From an uncultured bacterium (GTDB taxonomy: Bacteria; Patescibacteriota; Gracilibacteria; UBA1369; PNNO01): DNA of 32,000 nt. Below, piece after piece: positions 30 through 26,897 of the stretch (the first letter of the stretch is position 1; every line of letters begins with the position of its first letter). A model generated the notes under the pieces. That model searched no databases and was not told where the DNA came from. It saw only the letters and a list, made by a program, of their open reading frames with translations. Both the position numbers and the translations under genes were made by a program. Where the stretch lies: the NCBI GenBank assembly GCA_963704705.1, contig OY969931.1, positions 780,001 to 812,000 on the forward strand, written 5' to 3'.

Positions 30-48
30 ATAATAATTTATTGGGGAT

Positions 49-438: not shown

Positions 439-468
439 GATGATTGTTTAAATTGATACGCAAAAGCA

Positions 469-497
469 AGTTTATATAAATTGATGATTAAGGTCAA
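469..497 (-). promoter_or_regulatory. putative sigma70 promoter for the membrane-protein gene
   Basis: Minus strand reads TTGACC - 17 nt - TAAACT, about 30 nt upstream of the ATG at 438. Confidence 0.35.
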
Positions 498-577
498 GAA
501 ATAATTCATCATGCTTTGCTAATTCTCATACCTAAGCAAAAAAAGCCGCTTTAATTTTTTGCGACTCTTTAATGTTT

Positions 578-604
578 TTAACATTCAGAGCGTAATAGAG
601 AAAC
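578..604 (-). other. 16S trailer half of pre-rRNA processing helix
   Basis: 578-604 (ttaacattcagagcgtaatagagaaac) is complementary to 2285-2311 at 25/27 positions. The two mismatches become G-U wobbles in the minus-strand RNA. Typical RNase III-type stem bracketing a 16S. Confidence 0.75.
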
Positions 605-693
605 CTCTGCCGTTTCAAATAAATGAAACGTGCTCGACCATATAGCACTGCATGCTAACAAATAAATGTTAACACCGTTCTACATGACTCCTT

Positions 694-2160
<1,467 letters not shown>

Positions 2161-4132: not shown

Positions 4133-4711
4133 ATGAAAAAATTAAATATATTCCTATTGGGTGCGGTTTTTGTATTAACCGGATGCTTTGGAAGCGGTGA
4201 CGCTACAATCGATGTTCCACAATTTGAAGGTTTTAAAACTTATGAAACTCCAAGTTTTTTCATATCAGTTCCTGAAAGATGGGAGGTAATAGAACAGAAA
4301 GATTTTTCTGATGATATTCCAAGCCAGACTCAGATAATTTTCAGAAATAATATTAAAAACGATAAATTTACAGCAAATGCAAATGTAACCAAACAGCTAT
4401 TAAGTCAAGCAATGACATCTCAGGAATTCGCCAGAAGTGAGATAGCAGGCCATAAAAGTACTCTATTAAATTATCAGGAAATAAGCAGAAATGACGAATT
4501 TAAAGTAATTATAGGAGATAAAGTTCAAAATTCCGTTTATTTATTATTTGAAGGTAAGCAAGCTGAAGATCAGCCTATTATAAGGGTTGTACAAACTTAT
4601 GCTGTTAACGGTGCTGATGCATATACTGTTACTGCAGCATATTTAAAGGACTCTGATGAACTTACAGCAGAGGCAGCAGGCAGGATTATTGAAACCTTTA
4701 AATTAAAATAA
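4133..4711 (+). CDS. hypothetical lipoprotein
   Basis: 192 aa with an N-terminal signal peptide and lipobox (FVLTGC). No family recognised. Confidence 0.6.
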   Translation: MKKLNIFLLGAVFVLTGCFGSGDATIDVPQFEGFKTYETPSFFISVPERWEVIEQKDFSDDIPSQTQIIFRNNIKNDKFTANANVTKQLLSQAMTSQEFARSEIAGHKSTLLNYQEISRNDEFKVIIGDKVQNSVYLLFEGKQAEDQPIIRVVQTYAVNGADAYTVTAAYLKDSDELTAEAAGRIIETFKLK

Positions 4712-5406: not shown

Positions 5407-6559
5407 ACAAATATATTTGGATCATGCAGCTACTACTCCAATGGACCCTCGTGTTTTGGAGGCGATGATGCCTTATTTTAAGGAAGAATTTGGAAATCCA
5501 TCTTCTATTTACTCTATCGCTCAAAGAGCAAAACAAGCTTTAGATGAAGCTCGCAGTGATGTTGCTGAAATTCTCGGATGCGCTCCCGAGGAAATAATAT
5601 TTACAAGCGGCGGAACCGAAAGCGATAATCTTGCGATTCTTGGAGTAGCTCGAGCAAATAAAACTAAGGGCAAACACATAGTAACAACTAAAATCGAGCA
5701 TCATGCTGTTTTGCATCCTTGTGAAGTTTTAGAGAAAGAAGGTTTTGAAGTTACTTATGTTGAAGTTGAAAAAAATGGAATTGTTGATGCAGAAAAAGTA
5801 AAAGCAGCAGTACGTGAAGACACAATTCTTGTAAGTGTGATGTATGCGAACAATGAAATCGGAACCATTCAGCCAATTGGAACAATCGGCAGGTTTTGCA
5901 AAAAACGTAATATCCCCTTTCATACAGATGCATGCCAGGCAGCAGGCGTTTTAGATATTAATGTTGATAGACTTAAAGCTAGTTTGCTTACTTTAAACGG
6001 CAGCAAAATCTACGGACCAAAAGGTGTTGGAGTACTTTTTGTGCGTAAAGGCGTGAGCATTCAACCTTTGATGTATGGCGGCGAACAGGAACGCAGAATC
6101 CGTCCCGGGACTGAAAATGTTGCAGGAATTGTTGGATTGGCGGAAGCTCTTAAATTGGCTCAGGCAGAGAGCGAAAAAGAAAACAAACGTTTAATTGCTT
6201 TGCGTGATTATTTAATAAAAGAAATCGAGGCGCGGATTCCAAAAGTAATATTAAATGGTGATCGAACAGAGCGTCTTCCAAATAATGTAAATGTTTCGAT
6301 TTTGGATATTGAAGGTGAAGCTTTATTGCTACGTTTGGATATGGCTGGATTTGCAGCCTCTAGCGGTTCGGCCTGCACTTCGGGTAGTTTGGATCCATCA
6401 CATGTTATTCTTGCGTTAGGACACCCATACGAAATCGCACACGGCAGTTTAAGATTTAGTCTCGGAAAAAGCACAACAAAAAAGGACCTCGATAAGTTGC
6501 TCGAAGTCCTTCCTAAAATTGTTGATGATCTCCGGGCTATAAGTCCGGTGAGACTTTAA
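5393..6559 (+). CDS. nifS: cysteine desulfurase (NifS/IscS class)
   Basis: 388 aa with IYLDHAATTP, FTSGGTESDN, HTDACQA, SLLTLNGSKIYGPKG (PLP Lys), RPGTEN and SSGSACTS (active Cys). Putative TTG start overlaps nifU by 14 nt. Confidence 0.93.
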   Translation: MEKNKQIYLDHAATTPMDPRVLEAMMPYFKEEFGNPSSIYSIAQRAKQALDEARSDVAEILGCAPEEIIFTSGGTESDNLAILGVARANKTKGKHIVTTKIEHHAVLHPCEVLEKEGFEVTYVEVEKNGIVDAEKVKAAVREDTILVSVMYANNEIGTIQPIGTIGRFCKKRNIPFHTDACQAAGVLDINVDRLKASLLTLNGSKIYGPKGVGVLFVRKGVSIQPLMYGGEQERRIRPGTENVAGIVGLAEALKLAQAESEKENKRLIALRDYLIKEIEARIPKVILNGDRTERLPNNVNVSILDIEGEALLLRLDMAGFAASSGSACTSGSLDPSHVILALGHPYEIAHGSLRFSLGKSTTKKDLDKLLEVLPKIVDDLRAISPVRL

Positions 6560-13388: not shown

Positions 13389-14810
13389 ATGAAAAAGCTT
13401 ATTCCAATGCTAATGATTTTAGCTTTGCTGGTTTCGCAAATGCAGATTAGTTTTGCACAAACCCAAGGTTTTAATGTTATTAATTCGGTTGTCTCAATTA
13501 ATACATATAATGATACAGGCAATGATGAGCTTGAATGGATGGGTTCGGGCAGCGGGACAATCATTAGTGATGATGGAATGATTTTGACCAATTATCATGT
13601 TTTGGTTGATGAAAACGATGAATTTGTTGATTATATTGAACTTTGTTATACGCTTAGCGAATTTGAGCCGCCATATTGTCTTGAAGACGCTTATGTTTTT
13701 GAATATAACGCTGATATGGATTTGGCTTTGCTGTACCCTTTTATGCGTTATGATTATGAAACCGGAGAATATTATGAATTAACTGAAGAAGATTATCAGG
13801 GATATCCTGCAATTACTTTCAGATCAAACACTGTTACTGCCGAAGAGCTACCTGCACTTCGTGAACGTATTGAAATTTTGGGATATCCGGGTGCAAGTCT
13901 CACAGGGAATATTGTTGTTACAGAAGGTATTGTTACCGGTTATTTAACTGTTTCAACAAGCGATGTTTTAAAAGAAGCCAAAATTGATATTAACAGTGAT
14001 CTTTACGATCAAATGCTTGAGCTGTTTGGTTCAACAATGACACTTGGAATTGAAACCGATGCAACAATTAATCCCGGTAATTCAGGCGGTGCTGCGATTG
14101 ATTCCGACGACAGATTTGTGGGAATTCCGACTTATTTCAGTGTTGGAGGTGAAGCAGGACAATACGGATATGTTATACCGACCAATGTAATTAATCTATG
14201 GCTTAATCAGTTGGTTGCTGAAGGAAAGCTCCCTTTTAACCCAAGCATGTATATTTATGATAATAATGGGTTTGATGAGCTGTTTTTGTTTTTGGATGTT
14301 GATGATACACACCCGAATTATGATGCAATCAAATACCTAAAAGATAATTCAATTATTAATGGATATCCTGACGGAAGTTTTCAGCCTGAAGGAGAAATAA
14401 CAAGAGCTGAACTTATGAAAATTTTGGCTCTGGCAACAGGAATCGAGATTAGTCCTGATGAATATAATAATTGCTTCCCTGATGTTACCGATGACTGGTA
14501 CGCAAAATATGTTTGTTACGCAAAACAGCAGGGCTGGGTAGAAGGTTATCCTGACGGCACTTTTAAGCCAGGCAATAATGTAGTTAAAGCAGAGGCAATT
14601 AAAATGGTCTTAAATACGCAAGGTATTGTTTTGGATCCGGTGGGAAGCGTTAAACCTTTTAATGATGTTGAACTTGGTGATTGGTTCGCTCCGTATGTTG
14701 TTACAGCAAAAAACCTTGGAATTCTGGAAGAAAACGGAATCAAATATAATCCGGGCAATAATGCTACCCGCGGAGGTGTAAGTGAAAATATTTACAGGGT
14801 AATTAAGTAG
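13389..14810 (+). CDS. secreted trypsin-like (S1) serine protease with three C-terminal SLH domains
   Basis: Signal peptide, then catalytic-triad contexts LTNYHV (His), DLALL (Asp) and GNSGGAAID (Ser). Three SLH-like repeats follow (FLDVDD..INGYPDGSFQP..ITRAE; FPDVTDDWYAKYV..GYPDGTFKP; FNDVELGDWFAPYV). Confidence 0.8.
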   Translation: MKKLIPMLMILALLVSQMQISFAQTQGFNVINSVVSINTYNDTGNDELEWMGSGSGTIISDDGMILTNYHVLVDENDEFVDYIELCYTLSEFEPPYCLEDAYVFEYNADMDLALLYPFMRYDYETGEYYELTEEDYQGYPAITFRSNTVTAEELPALRERIEILGYPGASLTGNIVVTEGIVTGYLTVSTSDVLKEAKIDINSDLYDQMLELFGSTMTLGIETDATINPGNSGGAAIDSDDRFVGIPTYFSVGGEAGQYGYVIPTNVINLWLNQLVAEGKLPFNPSMYIYDNNGFDELFLFLDVDDTHPNYDAIKYLKDNSIINGYPDGSFQPEGEITRAELMKILALATGIEISPDEYNNCFPDVTDDWYAKYVCYAKQQGWVEGYPDGTFKPGNNVVKAEAIKMVLNTQGIVLDPVGSVKPFNDVELGDWFAPYVVTAKNLGILEENGIKYNPGNNATRGGVSENIYRVIK

Positions 14811-14820
14811 AATCTACTCT

Positions 14821-14935
14821 ATCCCGGGAGGAGATTTGACCGTAGGCGATTTTTGGTGCGCGGTAGGTATACCAGGCCCGGGCCGGAATTAGACCCAGTA
14901 CTATTTTTGATGCGCAGTAAGATTACTTTCACGGG
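14821..14935 (+). repeat. REP/BIME-like composite repeat, copy A (2 subunits)
   Basis: Subunit 1 (14823-14873) is cccggg-agga-gatttgacc-gtag-GCGATTTTTGGTGCGCGGTAGGTATACC. Subunit 2 (14877-~14932) is cccgggccgg-aattagaccc..ctatttttgatgcgcagtaagattac. The 28-nt block is identical to those in copies B and C. Confidence 0.85.
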
Positions 14936-14951
14936 GATGAAATAATCAGCC

Positions 14952-14979
14952 TTGACTTTTTTCTAAAATATAGTACAAT
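14952..14979 (+). promoter_or_regulatory. putative sigma70 promoter of the GC-rich cassette
   Basis: TTGACT (14952-14957) - 16 nt - TACAAT (14974-14979), in AT-rich DNA just downstream of repeat copy A. Confidence 0.5.
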
Positions 14980-15078
14980 ATTATTCTTTGCTTAAATATC
15001 TATTTTGGATTGTTTGAGCAACGCTTATTTGAAAGAACAGCGAACAAAACCACAACACCCCAACGGGAGGAACAACAG

Positions 15079-15657
15079 ATGGGAAAACTCAGCATGTTTG
15101 TGATGATCGTCGTGATGGTCGCCAACGTCTTCGGATGCAGCAGCCGGAACGTGGGAGAACGTCAGCCCATGCCCGCGAGCACCATGGCGGTGCTCGATCG
15201 GATCGACGACTGCGACGACAGGTACTGGATCTACGCACGCAACCGCGATGACGACGCCTATGCCGCATGCCTCGAGAACCCGCCGGTGAGTCAATCTCAG
15301 TGTGCACTCGACTACGATGCAGCCAAGGAGCAGTCATGGAACGCCTACGAAGACTGCCTCATCAACCTGCCCATAGTCTCGCACGACTGCGTCCTGCAGC
15401 TCCAGCCCTTCAGCCAGGAGCAGGACACCGACGGCGACGGCGTCGAGGACTTCTGGGAGTACCAGATGGGCCTGAACCCCTGCGAGCCGTGTAGCTACGG
15501 CGGTACCCCCGGCGTGGACTGCGACGGTGATCTCGACTACGATCGGGATCCGCGCAACAACGCCGATGACACCAACCCGATCTGCGGGATGCTGTGGGAC
15601 GACGCGTGGCACAACGAGAACGCGGACTACGGCCTCAACGACGGCGGCTGCGTCTAG
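15079..15657 (+). CDS. foreign high-GC lipoprotein, Cys/Asp-rich with thrombospondin-type-3-like Ca-binding motifs
   Basis: Start ATG at 15079 is preceded by GGGAGG 8 nt upstream. Signal peptide plus lipobox (MVANVFGCSS). DTDGDGVEDFWEYQMGLNP and DCDGDLDYDRDPRNNADD motifs. Codon third positions are overwhelmingly G/C. The track ORF start at 15010 is probably an upstream extension. Confidence 0.7.
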   Translation: MGKLSMFVMIVVMVANVFGCSSRNVGERQPMPASTMAVLDRIDDCDDRYWIYARNRDDDAYAACLENPPVSQSQCALDYDAAKEQSWNAYEDCLINLPIVSHDCVLQLQPFSQEQDTDGDGVEDFWEYQMGLNPCEPCSYGGTPGVDCDGDLDYDRDPRNNADDTNPICGMLWDDAWHNENADYGLNDGGCV

Positions 15658-15686
15658 CAGCCGGTTCGCAACCTTTCAACAACCAG

Positions 15687-15719
15687 GGTGCGGCGCTTCG
15701 ACCTTCGAAGCGCCGCACC
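15687..15719 (+). terminator. GC-rich 15-bp perfect hairpin (terminator-like, no U-tract)
   Basis: ggtgcggcgcttcga-cct-tcgaagcgccgcacc lies 30 nt after the stop codon and marks the right edge of the high-GC island. Confidence 0.6.
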
Positions 15720-15757
15720 TCTTGCCTATATCTGCAAAATTGTTCTACACTATAAAT

Positions 15758-16336
15758 ATGATAAAAAAAATCATCTCAATTCTCGCATTATTTTGCGTTA
15801 TAGCAAGCCTCTCGGGCTGCAACTTATATAACCGCGATCATTTAAGCATTTATAATCCCGACCGCATCACAAAAAAATGGTTCGGCACTTATGTTGAGCC
15901 AGGCAACTCCCCTGTTGAACCTGAAAAATTCAAAGGTTATCACACAGGCGTTGATTTTGAGACTTTTGAAGATGAGCAGAATATCGATGTTCCTGTTTAT
16001 GCCATTTGCGACGGACCGATTGCACGAAAAGTTATTGCACAGGGCTATGGTGGTGTTGTCGCTCAATCATGCATCATCAACAATGAAAAAGTAACGGTTG
16101 TTTACGGCCATCTGGATATATTAAGCGTTACCAACGATGCTCAGGAAGTGCTTACATTCGGTGATTTTATTGGAAATTTGGGTGAAGGATTCACGAATCA
16201 AACAGATCACGAACGAAAACATCTTCATTTAAGTATTCACAAAGGTATTGAAGTAAATTTACTTGGCTATGTTCAAACACCCGAAGAATTATCAGAATGG
16301 ATTGATCCCTTGGATATTTTAACTTTAAAAATATGA
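15758..16336 (+). CDS. M23/LytM-family peptidase lipoprotein
   Basis: Real start is probably ATG at 15758 (MIKKIISILALFCVIASLSGC lipobox). Has YHTGVDFE and HLHLSIHKG metal-binding motifs. The track ORF from 15527 is an artefactual extension through high-GC DNA. Confidence 0.75.
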   Translation: MIKKIISILALFCVIASLSGCNLYNRDHLSIYNPDRITKKWFGTYVEPGNSPVEPEKFKGYHTGVDFETFEDEQNIDVPVYAICDGPIARKVIAQGYGGVVAQSCIINNEKVTVVYGHLDILSVTNDAQEVLTFGDFIGNLGEGFTNQTDHERKHLHLSIHKGIEVNLLGYVQTPEELSEWIDPLDILTLKI

Positions 16337-16716
16337 AAAATCATACAAATTTATGGCTGATTATTCTTGTTGTTATTCTTACCGCATTGATGACCACTGC
16401 AGCATTATTACTTTGGCAAAATCAACAAAACCCAACACCTTCTCAAAATGGCAGCTGGGTAACTTACGAAAGCCAAAACGGGTTCAGCTTCCAGCATCCA
16501 AAAGGTTATGGAGTTAATGAAACCATTGATCCGGAAGACCCTGAGAATACCATTGTTCATATTGTTAAATTAGATGAAAATGGTGAGTTCGAGCAGGTTC
16601 CGCCTTCATTACAAATCAATGTCTCGCCAAGTTCAGTTTCGTTTTCGCTTTGGGAAGGTGCTAAATGGGATGGATATCCTGAAATTATAGGAACTTTTAA
16701 ATTCGCAAGCAATTGA
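16333..16716 (+). CDS. hypothetical membrane-anchored protein
   Basis: 127 aa with a single N-terminal TM helix. Overlaps the M23 gene stop (ATGA). Confidence 0.5.
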   Translation: MKNHTNLWLIILVVILTALMTTAALLLWQNQQNPTPSQNGSWVTYESQNGFSFQHPKGYGVNETIDPEDPENTIVHIVKLDENGEFEQVPPSLQINVSPSSVSFSLWEGAKWDGYPEIIGTFKFASN

Positions 16717-17865
16717 TTAATCTATCAACAAATTAATGATTACGGAATTATGTTTGAATGATTCAACAATAGCTTCTTTAAACTTTCTTATGGCTTCAAT
16801 TGAATAAGGTTTACCTGTTCTTTTTGTGTTTCCCCAACTATTTGCAATTTGTTTTAAAGTTGCACTGGGTTCTTCAAAAAAATAACGCATTGTTATATAA
16901 AAAGCTAAATCTCGATCAAGACTTCTATATCCCACCTGTGAAAAATCAAAATTATAAATTTGTTCCGTTACTTCCTGCCGAAGCTTTCTTTGAAAATCAT
17001 CTTCTTCAATTTTTTCAAATTCAGGACAATCTAAACCAACAACATTGTGAAAACTTTTTCTTGAATCATCACCGTCAACAGGTGCATCTAAATGCAAAAT
17101 TCCTCTCCCTGAACTTTCTGATCTCGAAACCATATTAATAGGATAATGGAGAGTATTTAAATTTTTATAAATATAACCTGATACATAAGATCTTATCCAA
17201 TTATAAGCTGAGGTTGAAAATCTATATCCAAACCTTGGATTGTATTTTATTACTGCTTTTCTTAAACCCAAAATGCCTTCGTTGTGTAAATCTTCATAAG
17301 AAAAAGTACCATTTATCACATATTCTCCATAAAGCTGCATAATAACTTTTCGTATAAGCATCTCATTTTCCTGAATTATACTATTAATAGATTCAGTGTC
17401 GCCTCTTCTCACTTTTTCCCAGATTTCATTTTCTTCATCAGTCAAATTCAGATTTTTTTTTGAGGAAGTTAAGACATTTGTAACCGTATTAAAATTACAA
17501 CCGAATATTTCGTTGGTAAAAGTGTTTGCCATACCAGGTTTTGGATATCTTTGTTTTTTTGATCGAACAAAATCCTTAAGTTTTCCCTTAAGTCCGGAAT
17601 CAACCTGATATTCATAAAAATCCAAAACAAACCTTACTTTTGCATCTGCTTCAGCAATGATATCTTCATCATCTTCATCAACCAGACCTTCCTGAACAAA
17701 ACTAATTGCATCACTAACAAGTTCTCTTAAAAACTGCAGATCCTCAGCATATTTTAATTCAGCGGAAAGCGCTGATTCCGGCATATCTTCTGCACCGCTT
17801 TCAGTTAGCTTAGGCTGCTGAATTTCATAATTTAGATTAACCATATTAGTGTCCGAATTTTGCAT
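16717..17865 (-). CDS. divergent sigma-70 family RNA polymerase sigma factor with long acidic N-terminal region
   Basis: Region 2 aligns with RpoD: DLHNEGILGLRKAVIKYNPRFGYRFSTSAYNWIRSYV..HYPINM versus [43 protein letters not shown]. The region 3/4-like C-terminus (LDAPVDGDDS.., ATLKQIANSWG..SIEAIRKFKEAI) carries an insertion. Confidence 0.75.
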   Translation of the reverse strand: MQNSDTNMVNLNYEIQQPKLTESGAEDMPESALSAELKYAEDLQFLRELVSDAISFVQEGLVDEDDEDIIAEADAKVRFVLDFYEYQVDSGLKGKLKDFVRSKKQRYPKPGMANTFTNEIFGCNFNTVTNVLTSSKKNLNLTDEENEIWEKVRRGDTESINSIIQENEMLIRKVIMQLYGEYVINGTFSYEDLHNEGILGLRKAVIKYNPRFGYRFSTSAYNWIRSYVSGYIYKNLNTLHYPINMVSRSESSGRGILHLDAPVDGDDSRKSFHNVVGLDCPEFEKIEEDDFQRKLRQEVTEQIYNFDFSQVGYRSLDRDLAFYITMRYFFEEPSATLKQIANSWGNTKRTGKPYSIEAIRKFKEAIVESFKHNSVIINLLID

Positions 17866-18631: not shown

Positions 18632-18708
18632 AATATTTATTTAAATCGGCTATTTATTTTAACTTGATATTCTATTTTGTCAAGATTCCGAAAGTTTACT
18701 ATTGCCAA

Positions 18709-18863
18709 TCCTCCCGGGAGGAGATTTGACTATAGGCGATTTTTGGTGCGCGGTAGGTATACCCGGCCCGGGCCGGCGTTTGACCTCGGTTCATTTTAGT
18801 TGCGCTGTATGCGAAAGTGGTCACGTGACCACTTTTTTTAGAAAAATTTAATCTAAATTTAAT
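18709..18863 (+). repeat. REP/BIME-like composite repeat, copy B (2 subunits + terminator + conserved tail)
   Basis: tcctcccgggaggag palindrome, then atttgac..GCGATTTTTGGTGCGCGGTAGGTATACC, then the ccggcccgggccgg palindrome, then gtttgacctcggttcattttagttgcgctgtatgcg, a hairpin and tagaaaaatttaatctaaatttaat. 18736-18863 matches 21485-21613 apart from 1 indel and 1 substitution. Confidence 0.9.
18814..18839 (+). terminator. intrinsic-terminator-like hairpin inside repeat B
   Basis: aaagtggtc-acgt-gaccacttt followed by a T-run (7 Ts in total from the end of the stem). The core gtggtcacgtgaccac is a perfect 16-nt palindrome, so it could equally be a protein-binding site. Confidence 0.5.
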
Positions 18864-18899
18864 GATTGGCAGGTATTATTTGGCCATAATATTTAATTA

Positions 18900-18928
18900 T
18901 TGACTTTGTAGCTACATTTTTATATAAT
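18900..18928 (+). promoter_or_regulatory. sigma70 promoter with inverted-repeat operator, hicA cassette
   Basis: TTGACT (18900-18905) - 17 nt - TATAAT (18923-18928). The inverted repeat ctacatt/aatgtag brackets the -10. Confidence 0.6.
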
Positions 18929-18954
18929 GTAGTTACGGTTGCACGCCAATTTTT

Positions 18955-19194
18955 ATGACCAAAATCGAAAAAACCGTACAAAACCTGCTAAATAATCCCA
19001 AGTCTCTTAAATTCAAGGAAATTCAAAAAGTATTAACATTTTTAGGATTTGAATTGATCAAAGCAAAGGGAAGCCACAAAAAATTCAAGCATCAAAATCT
19101 TAATCACGACCTGATAATCCCGGTCCACAACAACGATTGCAAAACCTTTTACAAAATTCTCGCCTCAAAAACCATAAAAAAGCTTATATCATGA
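18955..19194 (+). CDS. hicA: HicA-family mRNA interferase toxin
   Basis: 79 aa. LTFLGFELIKAKGSHKKFKH...IIPVHNNDCK matches the HicA pattern (GF....GSH..f.h......v.vP.H). Confidence 0.8.
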   Translation: MTKIEKTVQNLLNNPKSLKFKEIQKVLTFLGFELIKAKGSHKKFKHQNLNHDLIIPVHNNDCKTFYKILASKTIKKLIS

Positions 19195-19511
19195 AAAACA
19201 TCATTCATTACATAACAATCAATAATAAAAAGTATACATATACTTTAAAGCCCGGAAGCGGCAAAAAAACCCTTGTTGAATGCAAAGAGGCCAATATAAA
19301 TCAGAAATTTTTAAATGAAGATATCCCTGAACTGTTAAATGATCTGCCAAATTTGATTTTGGCGGAAAAAAAATATAAAAAGCAGCAGTCTGAGCTGATA
19401 AGGTTCAGGGTGAGCGCGGATGATAAAAAACAAATCGAAAAAATCGCGGTTAAAAAAGGCTACAATTCGGTTTCGGGCTATTTGAGGGATTTGGCTTTGG
19501 GGGATGTTTAA
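19191..19511 (+). CDS. cognate antitoxin with C-terminal ribbon-helix-helix (CopG-like) domain
   Basis: ATG at 19191 overlaps the hicA stop (ATGA). The C-terminus IRFRVSADDKKQIEKIAVKKGYNSVSGYLRDLAL is a typical RHH. The track start at 19137 is probably too far upstream. Confidence 0.65.
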   Translation: MKNIIHYITINNKKYTYTLKPGSGKKTLVECKEANINQKFLNEDIPELLNDLPNLILAEKKYKKQQSELIRFRVSADDKKQIEKIAVKKGYNSVSGYLRDLALGDV

Positions 19512-19573
19512 AAATTGACAAATTAGACAAAAAGAGCTAAATTAATTTCTTGATTTACTCTTAACATTCCACC

Positions 19574-20553
19574 ATGAATACTGAACCTAAAGACAAAATC
19601 GCAGAAGAATTAAACGCACAACCGGAATTAGCAGACAAAGCAAATGATACAAGTGCCCAAGAATATAATATGGGTGTCTCAGATGAAGTATCTGAGGTTC
19701 TTGAACAAACTGAATTAATCGAAAAAGCAAAAACAGAAGTAACAAAGGCAGTTAAACAAGCAGGAGAAGTTTTGTTACAACTTTTAGGTAAGGTGGATTT
19801 TGAATTTAAAGATGATGGAAGCCATGTTACAAAGGCTGATACAAGAGTGCAGGAATTAATCCGAACTCATTTAAGCGAAGCTTTCCCTGATTTTTCTTTT
19901 ATGGGTGAAGAAGGTGAAGATTCCGGAGTACAAAAGTTTGATTTTGAATGGGTGGTTGATCCATTGGACGGGACTATAAATTTTGGAAATAATATTGATT
20001 TCTTTGCTATATCAGTTGGCTTGAAGTATAAAAACACTCCGGTTTTGGGGGTTGTTTATGTCCCTGCTCAAAAAGAATTAATTACAGGTGATTTAACTGG
20101 TAAAAGCAAATGCAATGATATAGAAATCCAGGAATCAACTGAAAAAAATCATAAGAAAAAACCTTTTGCAGATGGTGTTTGGAATAAAAATACAGTTGTT
20201 TATTCAGAAGAGGCTGCAAAATTAAAAGGTAAGCCTCGAACAATGGGTACAGCAGTTCATACATTAATGGATGTTGCCAAAGGCGGATTCGGTCATGCAG
20301 TTTTATCAAATGTATTTATTTGGAATATTTTAGCTGCAATGCCAATTTTAAAAGGCGCAGGTGCTGATTTGTTAATTTGGCAGGATGGTGAGTGGAAAAA
20401 ATATAATAAATTGACCCTAGTTTATTTAATAAAGAAAACTCTTTTACTGTTTTAGCTGCAAGCAATACTAATCTAGACTATTGCAAAGCTAATATTTCAA
20501 TTGATAAATCACGTGAATTTGATTTTCAGACGAAAAACCACCTTTTGACATAA
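19574..20553 (+). pseudogene. inositol-monophosphatase-family gene (copy/domain 1), 3' end frameshifted
   Basis: IMPase motifs are present: KADTRVQELI, FMGEEG, WVVDPLDGTINF. The reading frame breaks near 20410-20413. The family-like C-terminus (DPSLFNKENSFTVLAASNTNL...) continues in another frame to the stop at 20551-20553. Confidence 0.7.
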
Positions 20554-21426
20554 GCACTACCGATAAAAAAGAAGCTGAATATGATCCTGCAGTACTTGAT
20601 CGTTTTCAATCGTTATTTGCAAAAATAGCAGAGATTACACGAAACGTTATTAATACAGGTAAAAAAGAAATTACTTTAAAAGAGGATGACTCAGAACAAA
20701 CAAACGAAGACGTTAGAATCGAAGAAGAACTCAAAGAATTATTAATGACTGAATTCCCGGATTTTAATTTTATGGGAGAAGAAACACCAAATATATTAAC
20801 TGGCAGCAGATACGGTTTTATTGTTGACCCTATCGACGGCACAACAAATTACTCAAACAATTTACCGTCTTTTGCAACCATAGTTTGTCTGGACTTTTGA
20901 CAGCAAACCTATTGGCGGATTGATTTACTTCCCTAAGCTTGATATGGCGGTTTTCAACAATGCAGATTCGACTTTTATAAGCAGATTTGATCATAATAAT
21001 GAAGCACAAATAGAAAAAGTTGATGTAAAAGATGACTTATTTGAAAATGAAGATGAAAATATTCCATTTGGATTTAGTTCACACGCCAGAAGCAAGATCA
21101 AATATAATAAAGAAGTATCAAAAGTATTTAATCAGCCACGAACATTCGGTTCAGCTGCTTCAGTTATCTCATTTACAGGTACGGGCAGTTTAAGAGGATT
21201 TGTTTTGGCAGGAGCAAAATTATATGATTTTGCAGGAGGTGTGCCTTTAATTGAAAACGGAGGTGGTAAAGTATATATTCTTGATGAGGAAGACGCTTGT
21301 TGGAAAGAATATGATGAAATGTTTGAAAAGCTAATGCAGGAACCTGAAGTTAAAAGATATATAATTGGAGGTGGCCCAAATACAGTTAAAAAATTGATGG
21401 AAAATATGCATCCTGAGGTGAAATAG
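20523..21426 (+). pseudogene. inositol-monophosphatase-family gene (copy/domain 2), no start codon, internal frameshift
   Basis: Frame 20523-20900 encodes ..EELKELLMTEFPDFNFMGEE..FIVDPIDGTTNYSNNLPSFATIVCL but has no start codon before the motif region. It shifts near 20884-20900 into ORF 20920-21426 (..KPIGGLIYFP...). An A-run at 20533-20537 could link it to copy 1. Confidence 0.65.
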
Positions 21427-21455
21427 GGGTAATCCTGAGGTGAAATAGGGGTAAT
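21412..21455 (+). repeat. perfect 22-nt tandem duplication (cctgaggtgaaataggggtaat x2)
   Basis: 21412-21433 equals 21434-21455, and the next 5 nt (cctgg) start a third unit. It spans the stop codon of ORF 20920-21426 and abuts repeat copy C. Confidence 0.9.
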
Positions 21456-21613
21456 CCTGGCCCGGGCCGGCATTTGAACTTTGAGCGATTTTTGGTGCGC
21501 GGTAGGTATACCCGGCCCGGGCCCGGCGTTTGACCTCGGTTCATTTTAGTTGCGCTGTATGCGAAAGTGGTCACGTGACCACTTTTTTTAGAAAAATTTA
21601 ATCAAAATTTAAT
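21456..21613 (+). repeat. REP/BIME-like composite repeat, copy C (2 subunits + terminator + conserved tail)
   Basis: Same architecture as copy B: ggcccgggccgg palindrome, catttgaac..GCGATTTTTGGTGCGCGGTAGGTATACC, ccggcccgggcccgg, then the second subunit, a hairpin at 21564-21589 and a conserved tail. Confidence 0.9.
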
Positions 21614-21651
21614 ATTTGTTTGTTATAATATTTACGTGTATTAACAATGTA

Positions 21652-21681
21652 TTGACAATGTAATTACAAGTTTGCTATACT
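21652..21681 (+). promoter_or_regulatory. sigma70 promoter with operator-like repeats, relB/yafQ-like cassette
   Basis: TTGACA (21652-21657) - 18 nt - TATACT (21676-21681). Direct repeats caatgta x2 and the palindrome tgtaattaca overlap the spacer. Confidence 0.55.
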
Positions 21682-21708
21682 GTAAATGAGAATCTAATCA
21701 CATTTAAT

Positions 21709-21984
21709 ATGGCAACTATACAACTTCGCATTGATAATGCTACAAAAAAATCCGCTAAAATAATTCTGGATAAACTGGGTATTGATATGACTTCTGCGAT
21801 TAAAATCTATTTAAAGCAGATAGTGATAAATAAAGGAATCCCCTTTAAACTGCTGACTGAAAATGGTTTAACCATCAAGCAGGAGAATGAAATACTCAAA
21901 GCTTCAAAAGAAGCTAAAAAAGGAATAGGGGTAACTAAGGCGATGAGTCCTAAAGAGGCGATAGAACATCTAAATAAGCTCTGA
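21709..21984 (+). CDS. RelB/DinJ-family antitoxin
   Basis: 91 aa. The N-terminus TIQLRIDNATKKSAKIILDKLGIDMTSAIKIYLKQIV is a typical DinJ/RelB RHH domain. Confidence 0.8.
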   Translation: MATIQLRIDNATKKSAKIILDKLGIDMTSAIKIYLKQIVINKGIPFKLLTENGLTIKQENEILKASKEAKKGIGVTKAMSPKEAIEHLNKL

Positions 21985-22245
21985 TGCAAATTATTAAACG
22001 CAAAAAATTTGATAAAAAATTTAAACAGCTTTCACCTAAACTAAAAGAAAAAATAAAATCTGCCATAAAGCTCTTTGCAGAAGACCCGCACAATCCAATA
22101 TTAAAAAATCATGCATTAAAAGGCCAACTAGAAGGATTACGCGCCTTTTCAGTAACTGGTGACGTAAGGGTTATATTTAAGGCGTATGACGATTACGTGC
22201 TCGTGATTATGCTAGGATGTTGGAATCCATAATCAGGTTTATTAA
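21984..22245 (+). pseudogene. YafQ/RelE-family toxin with C-terminal frameshift
   Basis: FKKQLSPKLKEKI..NPILKNHALKGQLEGLRAFSVTGDVRVIF is a RelE/YafQ pattern. The annotated frame ends ..VIMLGCWNP* at 22232. The family-typical ending DVGIHNQVY* is encoded at 22216-22245 in the +1 frame. Confidence 0.65.
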
Positions 22246-22305
22246 AACCTGAAAAGAATAAGTTCAGAAAGTGATTATTAGTCCCCCACTCCAACAATTT
22301 ATTTA

Positions 22306-22659
22306 TTAAGAAAGCCTCGATTTTTTCTTTGGATGCAGCAAATCCTCCCCTGTTCGTATATTAATTAGCCTGCTGTTTCTTAGCTGCCCTTTTACTCCGT
22401 CCTGTGGATATCTGTGCCCCCACGCGCAAAAGATTGGCACATGCCAGCATTTGCCTGTTTTTTGGTCGTAAATGTTAGAGATAATTCGGTATTTATGAAC
22501 CGGTGTATTGCATCTTCTACAGATATTGGGATTGCACACGCAGCTAATATCCCACTGCTCACCGTCAAACATGCATTTGCCTTTGTAATGGCCGCATTTA
22601 CTGCATCTTTTAAGTCCTGCAGGGACTTTTGGATTGGATTGTGATTCATTGTAGGGCAC
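22306..22659 (-). CDS. hypothetical Cys-rich (zinc-ribbon-like) protein
   Basis: 117 aa with CxxC pairs (CSKCGH, CRRCNTPVH) and further Cys/His. The region is GC-richer, so alternative overlapping ORFs exist. Chosen for the metal-binding pattern. Confidence 0.4.
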   Translation of the reverse strand: MPYNESQSNPKVPAGLKRCSKCGHYKGKCMFDGEQWDISCVCNPNICRRCNTPVHKYRIISNIYDQKTGKCWHVPIFCAWGHRYPQDGVKGQLRNSRLINIRTGEDLLHPKKKSRLS

Positions 22660-22740
22660 CTGTTCCTTTTGGGAAGTTGCCGGCGGGTCATAGAGTCAAG
22701 TCTCTTAGCCGCGCTCGTGATAAGTTGAGAAGACTAGTTA

Positions 22741-23586
22741 TTATTTCAATTTGTTTTTAGCTTGCTGTCCCGATAAAGGATTACTTTTTGTAATCACGCT
22801 TCGCCCTATTTCTTTTTCTGTATTTTTTCTGGCTTCGCCTGCGATATTTCCACCCCGTCTTGCTACTTTTTTATTTTCGGGTATGCCTTCGGGTTTCTCG
22901 TTTTTTGAGATTTCTGTTGTAACTTTTTCTCCAAGCATAGTGAAAATCAGCTCAAGGTCAGTCATGTTGTCACGCAAATTCGCTTTTGATTTGGTTGGAA
23001 TATTCTTGAATTTCTTGTATTGAGCCGGCGTCATGCCAAAAGTTGCTTTGGAAATTTCAGCGGTTAATATTCCATAATCTTTGTAATTGGATATACCTCT
23101 TTGTTTCCATTCATCTGTAAGATCTTGCCTGATCACAATGCCGCGAAGCCTTTTATCAATCCAGTCTTTGGGATAGCCTTTTTGCTCATAAAGCATTTTC
23201 ATTCTTTCCTGAGCCAACTCCGGATTTTCAATTTCTTCCATTCTTTCATAACCCACTTTTGCCAGCCATCTTTTGAAGGGTTCAGCTTTTGGTGAAGGAA
23301 TAGATTGAATAATACGAAGAAGTCCCTCCGTATTCGCGCAATCTGTAATATACTTTTTCCCGTCAGTAGCTTCCAATTTCAGTCGGTGACAAAATGTCAC
23401 CACCTCACTTCCTTCTTCCCTAAGCCTTTGTGAAAGCTTATTCCAATATTTTCTGGCTGTTTGATAATCCGGATTATCTGTTAAAGCAGAACAAACGTCC
23501 ACTACAGAAAAATACCACTCCTTATTATGCCAGATTCTTCGAATCTGTTTAGATTGAAAAAGAACGAGTTTATTTGAATGATCCAT
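22741..23586 (-). CDS. BRO-N domain protein (DinD / phage antirepressor-like)
   Basis: 281 aa. The N-terminus FQSKQIRRIWHNKEWYFSVVDVCSAL..ARKYW fits the BRO-N pattern, and the overall layout resembles DNA-damage-inducible protein D. Confidence 0.65.
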   Translation of the reverse strand: MDHSNKLVLFQSKQIRRIWHNKEWYFSVVDVCSALTDNPDYQTARKYWNKLSQRLREEGSEVVTFCHRLKLEATDGKKYITDCANTEGLLRIIQSIPSPKAEPFKRWLAKVGYERMEEIENPELAQERMKMLYEQKGYPKDWIDKRLRGIVIRQDLTDEWKQRGISNYKDYGILTAEISKATFGMTPAQYKKFKNIPTKSKANLRDNMTDLELIFTMLGEKVTTEISKNEKPEGIPENKKVARRGGNIAGEARKNTEKEIGRSVITKSNPLSGQQAKNKLK

Positions 23587-23625
23587 AAGTTTGATATTAC
23601 AAAAATAAATGTGTTTAAATTATAG

Positions 23626-23641
23626 GTGAGCGTACGCTCAC
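23626..23641. repeat. perfect 16-nt palindrome gtgagcgtacgctcac in a divergent intergenic region
   Basis: Lies between the divergently oriented BRO-N gene and DUF2779 gene and is preceded by ATAG. Could be an operator or a single REP-like hairpin. Confidence 0.5.
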
Positions 23642-23726
23642 TGTCAATTAATTTAAGATTTTTTGCGTTTTCTTAGTTCTTTTAATATGGTCATGATATA
23701 ATTTCAAACGATTTAATCCCCTCCCT

Positions 23727-25196
23727 TTGTCTCTATCCAAAACCGACTACAACCAATACCTTCAATGCCCCAAGCAGCTTTGGCTGAGTAAGTTTCGCAA
23801 AGAACTCAAAGCCCCGACCACTGAAGTTCAGCAGAATGTTTTTGACCAGGGGCATGAAGTTGAATCGTACGCGGACAAGTTGTTCCCCGAAGGCGTAACA
23901 GTTAAGGATTGGTACGCGAGAGGCCGCGAAGAAACGCAAAACTACATCAACCAAGGAAAAACAACGATTTTTCAGGCCAATGCGCTCACAAACGACCTAT
24001 ATTGCAAGGCCGACATCCTCCACTTCAACGACGAGACTAAAAAGTGGGACCTTTATGAGGTTAAGTCTTCGACTGAAGTTAAGCCCGAGCATATTCCGGA
24101 TGTGTGTTTTCAGAAAATCGCACTACAACAAGATGGAATCGACATTGATCGCACGTATCTGGTGCATGTTAATAAAAATTACGTACGTCAGGGCGAAATC
24201 GATCCCAAAAAACTGCTGACTTTCGAAGATATAACCGAGGATGTTGAAAACCTGCAACAAATCACTGAAACTCAAATTCCAAAGGCGCTTGAAATTCTAA
24301 AACTCACGCAGGAACCCCAAATTCAGATCGGAAAGCAATGCGATAAGCCGTACGAGTGTCCGTTTAAGCCTTATTGCTGGGCAAATGTTCCGGAGTTTTC
24401 GATTTATGATATTACAAGGATAACCAAAAAGCAGCTTAAAGCCCTGCAAGGCATGAATATTTTGAAGATTGAGGATGTTCCGGATGATTTTGACCTCACC
24501 CCTGCCCAGCAAAATCAGGTTATGGCAACAAAAACTCAAAAGCCGCTGATTGATAAAGAAGCGATTCATGACGAGCTCGCTAAACTCGAATATCCTTTGT
24601 ATTTTCTGGATTATGAAACGTACGGCGGGGCTGTTCCCCTTTTTGACGGACTTAAACCTTACCAGCAAATGCCTTTTCAGTACTCTTTGCATGTTGTTGA
24701 GCAAGAAGGCGCTGAGCCTGAGCATTATGAATATCTGCATCAGGGCAAGGATAATCCGATTCCGGCTTTGCTTGAAAGTATGCGCGCGAATATAGGTGAT
24801 ATTGGCAGTGTGATTGTGTGGTATAAGGGGTTTGAAAAAGGCAGGAATGAAGAGATGGCAGCGATGTATCCGGAGTATGCCGGGTTTTTGAAGTCAGTTA
24901 ACACGCGTGTTTTTGATTTGATGGATATTTTTAAGGCCCAGCATTATGTTGACGTGGGTTTTAAGGGAAGCTGTTCAATAAAAAAGGTTCTTCCTGTTTT
25001 GGTGCCTTCGCTATCGTATGCGGATCTGGAAGATGTGCGGGAAGGCGGAATTGCTTCGCTTTACTGGTTTAAGCATGTTTATGGCGCGGTTGATTCGGCG
25101 ATGCGGAAGCGCGTGTCGGAGAATTTACTTAAGTACTGTGAATTGGATACGTTGGCGATGGCAGAGGTTTGGAGGAGTATGTTAAAATTAAATTAA
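23727..25196 (+). CDS. DUF2779-like protein: N-terminal Cas4/RecB-like PD-(D/E)xK nuclease + C-terminal DEDD-like exonuclease fold
   Basis: 489 aa with a TTG start. YLQCPKQLWL, DILHF..WDLYEVKSS (D..ExK) and a C-x5-C-x5-C cluster (QCDKPYECPFKPYCW) give the Cas4-like 4-Cys pattern. C-terminal YFLDYET, VWYKGFEKG and YCELDTLAM resemble Exo I/II/III motifs. Confidence 0.7.
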   Translation: MSLSKTDYNQYLQCPKQLWLSKFRKELKAPTTEVQQNVFDQGHEVESYADKLFPEGVTVKDWYARGREETQNYINQGKTTIFQANALTNDLYCKADILHFNDETKKWDLYEVKSSTEVKPEHIPDVCFQKIALQQDGIDIDRTYLVHVNKNYVRQGEIDPKKLLTFEDITEDVENLQQITETQIPKALEILKLTQEPQIQIGKQCDKPYECPFKPYCWANVPEFSIYDITRITKKQLKALQGMNILKIEDVPDDFDLTPAQQNQVMATKTQKPLIDKEAIHDELAKLEYPLYFLDYETYGGAVPLFDGLKPYQQMPFQYSLHVVEQEGAEPEHYEYLHQGKDNPIPALLESMRANIGDIGSVIVWYKGFEKGRNEEMAAMYPEYAGFLKSVNTRVFDLMDIFKAQHYVDVGFKGSCSIKKVLPVLVPSLSYADLEDVREGGIASLYWFKHVYGAVDSAMRKRVSENLLKYCELDTLAMAEVWRSMLKLN

Positions 25197-25197
25197 T

Positions 25198-26043
25198 ATG
25201 AAAAATATAATAGTAAATCAGCCAAAAAGCGACAAAATGGTGGATCAGCTTGCCTCATTGTATTATGCGTTAATTCAACTTGATAAAAATGAAGCAGCCA
25301 ATTTTGATTTATCTCAGTTAAATTTTGTTGGATCTTTGCTTTTAACTACTCTTGCCTCTTACGTCAAAGATACCGATAGTGACTATATATCCCCGGATAA
25401 CGTAGATTTACGTTCTTATTTAAAAACAATAGCTTTTCCAAATTGTCTAAAAACCATATCAAGTATTCAAAAAAGGAAGAACTATTTGCCGCTCAGTTTG
25501 ATTGAGAAATCAAATAATCCCAATGAAAAAGAAGAAATACTTAATTGTTTTTATAATTTAATTTATAAATTAACAGGCGAAATTCCCAAAACACAAAATG
25601 CACTTATTTATCCGATTTCAGAATTAGTAAATAATATTTTTGAGCATAGCAAAAAAAAACAAGGTGTTATCTCGGGACAAACATTTCCCAAAAAGAATTT
25701 TCTTGAAATATCAATTGTAGATCGTGGAAGAGGAATCTCTGCTTCATATAAAGAAGCTTTAAATAAAGAATACACTGATGAAATGGCATTAAAACAAAGT
25801 ATGTTGGGCCAGTCCTCTAAAAGTGATGTAGAAAGAGGATATGGGATTCACACTTCAAAAAGATTGGTATGTACAGGATTGGGTGGTGAGTTTTTATTGC
25901 TTTCCGGTAATGCCGCATTAATATCTACCCCCAAAAGAGATAAAATTTTCACTTTGCCTAAATTTTATTGGCAAGGTGTGATAATATCATATCGAATACC
26001 GTTCCCCAAGTCCCCTATTGAAATATATAAGTATGTGGAGTAA
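25198..26043 (+). CDS. GHKL-superfamily ATPase (SpoIIAB/RsbW-like HATPase_c) with an uncharacterised N-terminal domain
   Basis: 281 aa with N-box ELVNNIFEHS, G1 VDRGRGI and G2 GYGIHTSKRL. The ATG is 1 nt after the DUF2779 stop. Confidence 0.7.
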   Translation: MKNIIVNQPKSDKMVDQLASLYYALIQLDKNEAANFDLSQLNFVGSLLLTTLASYVKDTDSDYISPDNVDLRSYLKTIAFPNCLKTISSIQKRKNYLPLSLIEKSNNPNEKEEILNCFYNLIYKLTGEIPKTQNALIYPISELVNNIFEHSKKKQGVISGQTFPKKNFLEISIVDRGRGISASYKEALNKEYTDEMALKQSMLGQSSKSDVERGYGIHTSKRLVCTGLGGEFLLLSGNAALISTPKRDKIFTLPKFYWQGVIISYRIPFPKSPIEIYKYVE

Positions 26044-26071
26044 TATATAAGATCCTCAAATAATTTATATT

Positions 26072-26407
26072 ATGAATAATGAAACAACAAAAAGAATAAA
26101 GATAATTGATATTGTTGGCGCTAACACAATTTCTTCAAGAGATGTTGTTATAAATTTTCTGCCAATTATCAAGAAAAATTTAAAAAACTCTATTGTTTTC
26201 GATTTTTCAGATATAAATTTTATTTCAAGGTCAGCTGCGCATGAACTTATTAAGCTTAAAACAAAATATTTTAATATTACATTTAGCAATTTGGCGGATG
26301 AAGTATCTGAAATGCTTAGGATAATTGCCGCAAACATTGCTTCACCAAAAAAATCACAAGACGAATTTTCACCGGAAAAAACTACTTTTAGTGCGTTGTT
26401 AAACTAA
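26072..26407 (+). CDS. STAS-like DUF4325 protein
   Basis: 111 aa. SSRDVVINFLPIIKKNL..IVFDFSDINFISRSAAHELI matches the DUF4325 / anti-sigma-antagonist-like pattern (..lDF.gV..iS.Sf..E..). Confidence 0.6.
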   Translation: MNNETTKRIKIIDIVGANTISSRDVVINFLPIIKKNLKNSIVFDFSDINFISRSAAHELIKLKTKYFNITFSNLADEVSEMLRIIAANIASPKKSQDEFSPEKTTFSALLN

Positions 26408-26410
26408 TTT

Positions 26411-26884
26411 TTGAATAAGATTGATCAAGAAAAAAGAGAATTCCTTAAAGAACATTATCACTATGAAGTTGAAATGATGATTTTATCATTTCAATCAAAA
26501 TTAAATATTAATTATGATAAAACTTCTTTTTTAAATAACCTTTTAATAGAAAACTTTTTATTACATTCTAGAGGTTTAATGGAATTTTATTTTTTTGATA
26601 TTAAGAAATTTAAAGATGATGATGTATTAGCATCAGATTTGATTGCAAACTGGAAAAAATTAAGACCTTATGAGTATAAAGATGTGGAATATATTAAAAA
26701 AAGGATTGATAAAGAACTTGCTCATCTTACTTGGTCTAGAAAAGATCCTAATGATATAACTAGAAATTGGGATTTGAATGAAATATTTAATATTCTAAGT
26801 CATACAACTAAAATTTTCATTAATAATTTATCTAAAAATTTAATAAATAAAAAAATAACTGAACTTAAAGAAATGATACAATAA
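26411..26884 (+). CDS. hypothetical helical protein (possible HEPN-like R-x6-H: RIDKELAH)
   Basis: 157-aa ORF with a TTG start 3 nt after the STAS stop, predicted all-helical by eye. The HEPN suggestion rests only on one short motif. Confidence 0.45.
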   Translation: MNKIDQEKREFLKEHYHYEVEMMILSFQSKLNINYDKTSFLNNLLIENFLLHSRGLMEFYFFDIKKFKDDDVLASDLIANWKKLRPYEYKDVEYIKKRIDKELAHLTWSRKDPNDITRNWDLNEIFNILSHTTKIFINNLSKNLINKKITELKEMIQ

Positions 26885-26897
26885 CAATGCTGTTATT

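Follow-up and report, generated by a model that had tools for sequence, protein, structure and literature searches.

How does a single GC-rich gene come to lie in an AT-rich bacterial genome, and what holds its composition there? The question arises at a locus in a 32,000-nucleotide (nt) stretch, here called the window, from an uncultured gracilibacterium of the Patescibacteriota (contig OY969931.1, positions 780,001–812,000), where a gene on the plus strand (15079–15657) encodes a 192-residue, acidic, Cys-rich lipoprotein. An earlier note on this DNA had taken the gene for a very recent, unameliorated import from a high-GC donor, with an assembly chimera as the alternative. Comparison with homologous loci points instead to an old property of the gene itself. 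We favour, while evenly divided on it, a reading in which the island is a genuine, self-contained accessory cassette that gives rise to a highly expressed, stable mRNA and whose GC-rich coding sequence (CDS) is kept by selection on that mRNA.

The compositional break itself is beyond dispute. In 200-nt windows, GC content climbs from 0.35–0.40 to 0.60–0.66 at ~15040 and is back at 0.40 past ~15720, which bears out the abrupt jump from ~30% to ~60–65% that the earlier note had placed at ~15040–15722. The island holds, as that note had said, one gene, whose GC content is 0.622 (GC1, GC2 and GC3, the values at first, second and third codon positions, are 0.62, 0.40 and 0.85), and the rest of the window is 34.6% GC. 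Set against all other 579-nt windows of the 32 kb, the CDS has a GC z score of 5.2, and the maximum among those windows is 0.458 once the 16S rRNA gene is left out. GC3 statistics likewise mark the gene as atypical for this genome, with 0.85 against a mean of 0.267 (s.d. 0.077) in the 22 other genes of the window (z = 7.6). Its codon choice is the mirror image of that of the host: Asn is AAC in 13 of 13 cases, Leu is CTC or CTG only, AGA is absent, codons for Val, Pro, Thr and Ala never end in T, and almost all codons used belong to the host's rarest. GC skew across the island is between −0.11 and +0.05.

Breaks as sharp as these would also appear if a high-GC fragment of another organism had been joined into an AT-rich contig. 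An identical protein is, however, known from a contig of 1.37 Mb and from a Logan assembly made independently from run ERR11571143, and the Logan contig (L004, 3,008 bp) is 100% identical to window positions 14844–17851, covering the AT-rich leader, the island, the hairpin behind it and the next three genes. With an independent assembly of another read set in agreement, a matching architecture on ten other contigs, one of them in a single-cell genome, and an AT-rich leader that is conserved across the family and fused to the CDS, a chimera is ruled out for practical purposes, and we give it next to no weight.

Homologues bear directly on the age of the composition. An exhaustive representative search matched 298 proteins, about 30 of which are short (156–250 amino acids) and related over their full length, lipobox and Cys pattern included. 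Eleven members have genomic context (window, L001/L002, L003, L005, L006, L007, L008, L009, L010, L011/L012 and L016), and L017 is an additional close relative of L005. Amino-acid identity among the 11 is 25–55%. The lineage of their contigs was inferred from neighbouring proteins labelled Patescibacteria; L005 comes from a Patescibacteria single-cell genome (contig JBHPIO010000002.1), and L011/L012 carries a protein labelled Peregrinibacteria by NCBI. The contigs of all 11 loci are 35–48% GC, and the family has so far been seen only on AT-rich contigs of Patescibacteria/Peregrinibacteria type. At 10 of the 11 loci the family gene is nonetheless a GC-rich single-gene island (GC 0.54–0.62, GC3 0.65–0.85) among open reading frames with a median GC3 of 0.24–0.49. 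GC3 does not drop with the AT-richness of the host, the highest value being found in the most AT-rich one. The increase is limited to the CDS: GC3 is high in every third of it, leaders at −150 to −51 have a GC content of 0.29–0.34 in the close family, and promoter plus leader of the family cassettes are 29–34% GC.

Synonymous sites are nearly randomised between members, codon identity at conserved residues being 51.4% against 47.5% expected from each gene's codon usage (eight members). That GC3 has stayed high all the same implies that the synonymous sites are under a force specific to this gene. In the closest pair, L005 and L017, synonymous divergence (dS) is 0.385, the ratio of nonsynonymous to synonymous divergence (dN/dS) is 0.12 and GC3 is 0.75–0.77, with T-to-C and C-to-T changes in both directions; the two are 89% identical through promoter and leader and 89–90% with the CDS included. 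A promoter of the form TTGAC(A/T)-N16-18-TAnnnT and the leader motif TTTGAAAG... are common to the window, L001, L003, L005 and L006. Because these elements are homologous across cassettes whose proteins are 44–55% identical, promoter and leader must have been inherited together with the CDS, and an AT-rich leader (~30% GC) that has co-evolved with its gene is unlike a block imported from a high-GC donor. A further motif, TTTGAAAGTTAGTAAT, was considered as a general promoter or operator and rejected, as its occurrences are confined to sequence upstream of family genes and the window shows no enrichment of it. Dual coding was rejected too: an in-register antisense frame is fully open in 5 of 10 members and interrupted in the window and L003, and such open frames are expected because TTA, CTA and TCA are rare.

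As judged by this comparison, which shows homologues of 25–55% identity to be equally GC-rich on AT-rich contigs, the GC richness is a long-maintained property of the coding sequence in this family and not a remnant of recent import. The proposal of a very recent, unameliorated transfer therefore falls, the earlier note having itself named GC-rich homologues throughout relatives as the observation that would speak against it. Its suggestion that the donor clade might be traced, and might be the host of an episymbiont, fares no better: the homologues it asked for exist, but every placed locus lies on an AT-rich contig, and neither the 11 placed loci nor the plasmid, phage and viral searches turned up a family member in GC-rich surroundings or on a plasmid, phage or viral contig.

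What kind of gene has been kept in this way? The predicted signals show it laid out as an autonomous transcription unit, with a sigma-70-type promoter, an AT-rich leader, a strong Shine–Dalgarno sequence (SD), the CDS, a 3′ arm and a GC-rich hairpin, all on the plus strand. The promoter, TTGACT-16-TACAAT (14952–14979), matches 10 of 12 consensus positions and lies, as had been noted, in AT-rich sequence just 3′ of a repeat copy (copy A, 14822–14919). Equivalents (TTGAC(A/T)-N16-18-TAnnnT) precede the 5′ arm in 7 of 10 family loci. Inspection of the CA-rich leader (15046–15078) finds the SD, GGGAGG, at 15065–15070, 8 nt before the ATG. It is indeed unlike the host genes, as a well-placed SD precedes none of the 21 other genes of the window whose starts were inspected; the anti-SD CACCTCCTTTCT is kept at the 3′ end of 16S rRNA (gene 696–2160, minus strand), and SD-led initiation in this host seems to be reserved for a few genes. 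The hairpin (15687–15719), which the earlier note had described correctly, has a 15-bp stem with 11 G–C pairs and a 3-nt loop, is followed by CTCTTGCC and not by a T-run, and is probably a 3′ stabiliser or a leaky terminator ahead of the downstream M23 peptidase gene. A GC-rich hairpin stands at the matching place in every homologous locus, in most of them with a T-run. An Rfam search of 14780–15760 gave no family match beyond chance hairpins.

Two observations on related loci belong here. Just after the cassette terminator in L001, L005 and L017 there is a perfect extended −10 box, TGCTATAAT or TGCTATAAC, which may be an outward promoter for the downstream gene. The long leaders of L001 (~163–230) and L005 (~5890–5945) contain a hairpin with a compensatory change, read by eye (GTAAGTGTT/AACACTTAC versus TGTAAGCGT/ACGCTTGCA, the second pair with U–G), which is absent from the window's shorter leader and may be a regulatory element of the 5′ untranslated region (UTR).

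The gene is flanked by an inverted repeat whose arm sequence varies between loci while its complementarity is kept. In the window, TTGAAAG..GCGAAC (15029–15045; the 5′ arm as a whole, 15028–15045, is made of TTTGAAAG, the internal loop AACA and GCGAAC) faces GTTCGC..CTTTCAA (15664–15679; loop AAC). The arms are GTTAGTAATT(C/T..) with (..G/A)AATTACTAAC in L001, L003, L005 and L017, AGATAGTAGTAAC with GTTACTACTTTCT in L006, GGTTAGAAA with TTTCTAACC in L008, and TTCGAGGAG with CTCCTCGAA in L011. In L017 the 3′ arm differs from that of L005 by a C-to-T change opposite a G, which turns a G–C into a G–U pair. Local complementarity was tested against 200 shuffles, none of which equalled that of L001 or L005; L003, L006, L008 and L011 were marginal (3–6 of 200). 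Cognate arm duplexes of three arm variants have energies of −15 to −18 kcal/mol, against −5 to −12 kcal/mol for non-cognate combinations (window −15.4 versus −5.0 to −10.8; L006 −14.9 versus −7.4 to −9.8). RNAduplex on whole UTRs was uninformative, as it built long spurious duplexes.

Both arms would be transcribed, since the 5′ arm comes after the promoter in 7 of 10 loci and the 3′ arm stands ahead of the terminator hairpin. When full predicted transcripts (740–860 nt) were folded, the arm–arm helix was present in the minimum-free-energy (MFE) structure in five of five cases, with 11–17 pairs, pairing probabilities near 1 and an ensemble expectation of about the full helix; the window transcript has 13 pairs in the MFE structure and an expectation of 12.6. 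The expected number of UTR–UTR pairs is 16.2 in the family and 7.35 in 26 control genes (Mann–Whitney p = 0.0025; −130/+80 flanks). Predicted end-to-end pairing is common for any RNA, and the case for a UTR–UTR helix is carried by comparative evidence, not by thermodynamics: complementary, covarying arms lie between promoter and terminator, as the sequence of an mRNA with interacting 5′ and 3′ UTRs should have them. The window's 5′ arm is placed 20–37 nt ahead of the SD, which is left free; L008 is the one locus in which arm and SD adjoin.

Inverted repeats around a surface-lipoprotein gene that is GC-rich in an AT-rich genome, as Borrelia vls is, also bring to mind a process acting on DNA, be it a vls-like recombination substrate, an invertible phase-variation segment or GC-biased gene conversion. 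The cassette boundaries moreover coincide with the loss of homology between L005 and L017, which falls from ~90% to 35% about 55 nt past the terminator. We hold such a process to be improbable. Silent copies are absent from the 32-kb window, where tblastn with 20 family proteins returns only 15079–15654; GC skew is about zero, compared with 0.52 in vls; dN/dS of 0.12 indicates purifying and not diversifying selection; and no recombinase, invertase or integrase is among the window genes scanned. The promoter–CDS–terminator orientation is alike in all 10 loci, the conserved UTRs inside the exchanged block are AT-rich, contrary to tract-wide GC-biased gene conversion, and the G–U change in one arm suits pairing of RNA better than pairing of DNA.

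The cassette is not a fixed part of its chromosomal site. Together with repeat copy A it forms an insertion (14811–15757) between the stop codon of a secreted trypsin-like protease with three SLH domains (SLH-trypsin; 13389–14810, GC3 0.28) and the start of an M23 peptidase lipoprotein (15758–16336, GC3 0.33), both host genes. The presence/absence comparison that the earlier note had proposed finds this site empty in L013, the best available relative around the locus (M23 68% and SLH-trypsin 59% identical), where nothing but the dinucleotide CA stands between the SLH-trypsin stop TAA and the M23 ATG: the two genes are 2 nt apart, compared with a gap of 947 bp in the window. Neither L014 nor L015 has a family gene near M23. 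In L003, a close relative of L013 (84% amino-acid identity in GT4), the cassette lies ~50 nt past the 3′ end of tRNA-Lys(CTT), and two extra tandem copies of that end (TTGTGGTGGGTCGTT) stand between them (L003 1217–1321, compared with L013 3694–3769); the tRNA-Lys of L013 has neither cassette nor repeats. The tandem copies look like the att-like trace that site-specific integration leaves; no integrase is seen at the L003 tRNA site, where the contig ends. Comparison of the genomes thus shows the cassette NEVERTHELESS to be accessory and, to all appearance, mobile: it is found at different chromosomal sites in different genomes and can therefore be counted to the flexible gene pool. Of the horizontal acquisition proposed at the outset, the acquisition stands, given an accessory gene, a site empty in L013 and a variable location, whereas its being recent and from a high-GC donor does not.

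Such mobility leaves room for another version of import, in which each Patescibacteria genome recently and independently took its copy from an unsampled pool of high-GC, SD-using donors, possibly hosts, with diversification in the pool and too little time for amelioration since. Codon usage typical of a high-GC organism, including first positions (CTN, CGN), a Lys-poor protein, an SD that is strong for a genome poor in them, a GC hairpin without a U-tract, and the variable location, once beside a tRNA gene with att-like repeats, would all fit. We nevertheless consider repeated import unlikely, for it needs about ten independent recent events and no ameliorated intermediates are seen. GC-rich surroundings are seen at none of the 11 loci, and the searches of plasmids, phages and viral contigs gave no match; the GC rise ends at the CDS, with a promoter and leader of 29–34% GC having travelled along through 44–55% protein identity; and GC3 is no lower in AT-richer hosts, the most AT-rich having the highest.

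The repeat beside the promoter has a wider distribution. It belongs to a GC-rich family of ~100–170 nt with three copies in the window: copy A, which is the left part of the repeat, copy B (18712–18879) and copy C (21461–21629). L003 (80–125), from another species, shares with it an identical stretch of 28 nt (TTTTAGAAAAATTTAATCAAAATTTAAT). At the end of copies B and C stand a 22-nt terminator that is a perfect palindrome (AAAGTGGTCACGTGACCACTTT, followed by a T-run) and an AT-rich promoter; copy B directly precedes the toxin–antitoxin module HicA (18955–19194)/RHH (19137–19511), and copy C, immediately upstream of which ATCCTGAGGTGAAATAGGGGTA is tandemly duplicated (21410–21458), the module RelB (21709–21984)/YafQ (21984–22232). 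The repeat has the look of a module that serves accessory cassettes as a junction or promoter.

The product of the gene can be read as an uncharacterised, disulfide-stapled surface lipoprotein predicted to bind Ca. Its N-terminal hydrophobic segment (MGKLSMFVMIVVMVANVFG-C20) ends in VFG-C20, and Cys20 shows no variation in the 9-sequence alignments A1 and A3 and next to none in the 22-sequence alignment A2. The protein has 11 Cys, 37 Asp plus Glu and only 2 Lys, and the close family is likewise Lys-poor (K 0–4, R 4–9). Both the lipobox, Cys-rich protein and the Asp motifs (DTDGDG.., DCDGDLDYDRD) resembling thrombospondin type 3 (TSP3) repeats that the earlier note had recognised are present, and the motifs are the most conserved part of the family: its invariant core is DTDGDGVEDFWE and DCDGDLDYDRD...N..D, with D116, D118, D120, G121, E127, D149, D155, D157, N161 and D164 unchanged throughout. 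Most of the 298 search matches are long multi-repeat proteins aligned only to residues ~110–150, which are generic TSP3-type Ca-binding repeats. The window protein has no Pfam match at E ≤ 0.1 and an NCBIfam match to MtsD of 15 bits only; its homologues P0008 and P0017 carry precomputed PF18884 matches. An AlphaFold2 model on the family alignment (predicted local distance difference test score, pLDDT, 87.9; predicted template-modelling score, pTM, 0.77) has a long helical hairpin (residues 34–95, pLDDT > 94) followed by a loop-rich segment that bears the Asp motifs. Foldseek of this model against the PDB gave nothing at E < 1, the N-terminal hairpin included, and a family-profile search of PDB sequences gave marginal EF-hand/calexcitin matches only. 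Cell-envelope genes adjoin several members: SLH-trypsin and M23 in the window, M23-SLH in L010, an SLH protein in L008, and Big_1/invasin-like and peptidoglycan-binding proteins in L011 and L012.

Taken as an expression unit selected at the level of its mRNA, the cassette might work as follows. SD, UTR–UTR helix, 3′ hairpin and GC-rich CDS would act together to give a compact, efficiently initiated and nuclease-resistant mRNA, suited to an abundant envelope lipoprotein. Selection on this mRNA would hold the GC richness of the CDS, the GC-rich codons themselves being of presumed benefit. Transcripts from the cassette promoter may read through into M23, because the hairpin has no U-tract and M23, which formerly adjoined the protease gene, has no convincing promoter of its own in 15720–15757. 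The predicted folding energy of the lipoprotein gene is −225 kcal/mol, compared with about −120 kcal/mol for host genes of the same length, or roughly double per nucleotide.

Several results weigh against this account. Synonymous shuffling gives a mean z score of −1.87 for the family (−3.7 to +0.1) and −0.94 ± 1.21 for 16 control genes, a difference that is not significant, and the window gene scores only −0.74; we accordingly rejected the idea of extra mRNA structure beyond what composition brings. The codon pattern, with A and T both avoided in third positions and with CTN and CGN in use, is not the usual tRNA-based optimisation of AT-rich bacteria, since U-ending four-fold codons are avoided too. 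Taken by themselves, the window arms (7 + 6 bp) are not significant against shuffles, 8 of the 26 control genes also exceed 10 expected end-to-end pairs, and the arms may be an inverted repeat with a role at the DNA level. Genomic context has been seen for only 11 of the ~30 family members, and among these the divergent, Cys-poor L010, 11 nt behind an M23-SLH gene, is AT-rich (GC3 0.33), so GC richness is not obligatory.

Nearly all codons used being among the host's rarest, the GC-ending ones might also be selected for their rarity, either slowing translation for the co-translational export and disulfide formation of an 11-Cys protein or tying expression to tRNA-charging states. The protein is indeed predicted to be exported and is Cys-rich, and two unrelated GC3-rich genes described below, at L015 9802–10587 and L001 4479–5087, also have strong SDs and exported products. 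We put little trust in rare-codon gating: the promoter and the SD are strong and the CA-rich leader is unstructured, which suggests high, not throttled, expression, and another lipoprotein gene of the window (4133–4711) has ordinary codons and a GC3 of 0.21.

The two genes just mentioned were met by chance on AT-rich Patescibacteria contigs, and both are CDS-limited GC-rich islands. The first (L015 9802–10587; GCA_042568205.1, JBHPJE010000003.1) encodes a 261-amino-acid lipoprotein with a GC3 of 0.70 in a neighbourhood of 26–32% GC, and the second (L001 4479–5087) a 202-amino-acid protein with a signal peptide and a GC3 of 0.63. They have strong SDs (AAGGAG and AAAGGAGGTGA), a long leader and a terminator hairpin, and neither product has a Pfam or NCBIfam match. 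They hint at a wider class. One could go further and suppose that, in SD-poor, AT-rich Patescibacteria, cassettes for exported proteins that combine GC recoding, a leading SD and a UTR clamp make up an expression class apart, perhaps with a translation regime of its own, or, at the extreme, that they are T-DNA-like effector genes, expressed in an SD-using, GC-richer host after transfer from the episymbiont; this is speculation, and we think it very improbable.

Other features of the window concern its mobile and ribosomal genes. The region 18700–29100 is a cluster of mobile or defence type, with two toxin–antitoxin modules, Bro-N (22741–23586), a HATPase protein, Cas4/DUF2779 (23727–25196; GC3 0.48) and a Type ISP restriction-modification enzyme (26898–29093). 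An inositol monophosphatase gene (19574–20455) is followed by a truncated second copy (20920–21426). The 16S rRNA gene is flanked by a 28-nt, 93% complementary inverted repeat (577–604/2285–2312), presumably its processing stem. No 23S gene lies within ~700 nt downstream of the 16S 3′ end (window 1–695, which is 33% GC with small open reading frames), and this suggests unlinked rRNA genes.

Atypical GC content is routinely taken as a clock of recent horizontal transfer. Here the clock fails, for the gene is accessory and mobile and yet its GC-rich CDS persists, which is a caution for pipelines that detect horizontal gene transfer or bin genomes and discard or mislabel such segments. The implied force holds GC3 about 50 points above the genomic level and is coupled to an SD and a UTR helix. 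To our knowledge, the control of gene expression in Patescibacteria, whose genomes are among the most AT-rich and reduced bacterial ones, is almost unstudied. Were the force one of mRNA stability or of a special mode of translation, the cassette would offer a handle on that control, and its probably abundant, Ca-binding surface lipoprotein would become a candidate for host attachment. Literature searches on GC-rich genes or codon usage in the candidate phyla radiation (CPR) yielded nothing relevant, and we found no earlier description of the family or of a conserved, CDS-limited GC enrichment in CPR genomes.

Each side of the cassette has a counterpart among known systems. With genomic islands and tRNA-associated integrative elements it shares variable presence, an atypical composition and one copy by a tRNA 3′ end with direct repeats; it differs in comprising just one gene (~0.75 kb), with no visible integrase, and in an odd composition that is CDS-limited and conserved in distant homologues and not decaying. 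Its product shares two motifs of DxDxDGxxDxxE type with bacterial TSP3 proteins (Pfam PF18884; for example Myxococcus MtsD, NCBIfam NF047639), but falls below every Pfam threshold and has an N-terminal disulfide-stapled helical hairpin that has no PDB match. The best precedent, by analogy, for a lipoprotein gene that keeps a high G+C content within an AT-rich genome is Borrelia vls, which is 49.1% GC against 28.6% for the genome across species, with selection for high G+C inferred, and which has an array of silent cassettes, a GC skew of 0.52 and segmental gene conversion (PMC11499132). Both are surface-lipoprotein genes far above the G+C of their genomes, with inverted repeats whose sequence is not conserved; the window gene, however, is single-copy within the 32 kb, has no skew and is under purifying selection. 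Pairing between UTRs can also repress, as in Staphylococcus aureus icaR, where base-pairing of the 3′ UTR with the SD region hides the SD and sets off cleavage by RNase III (PMC3868564), whereas the 5′ arm in the window leaves the SD unmasked. Among cases understood by experiment, the nearest is Bacillus subtilis hbs, in which a strong SD and a 14-bp interaction between 5′ and 3′ UTRs limit attack by RNase Y and RNase J1 and so give a stable, abundant transcript (PMC5737220). The two are not homologous, the pairing in the window is predicted and backed by covariation, and the CDS of the cassette, unlike that of hbs, is strongly GC-recoded; the logic by which a free SD and a closed pair of transcript ends would protect an mRNA appears similar.

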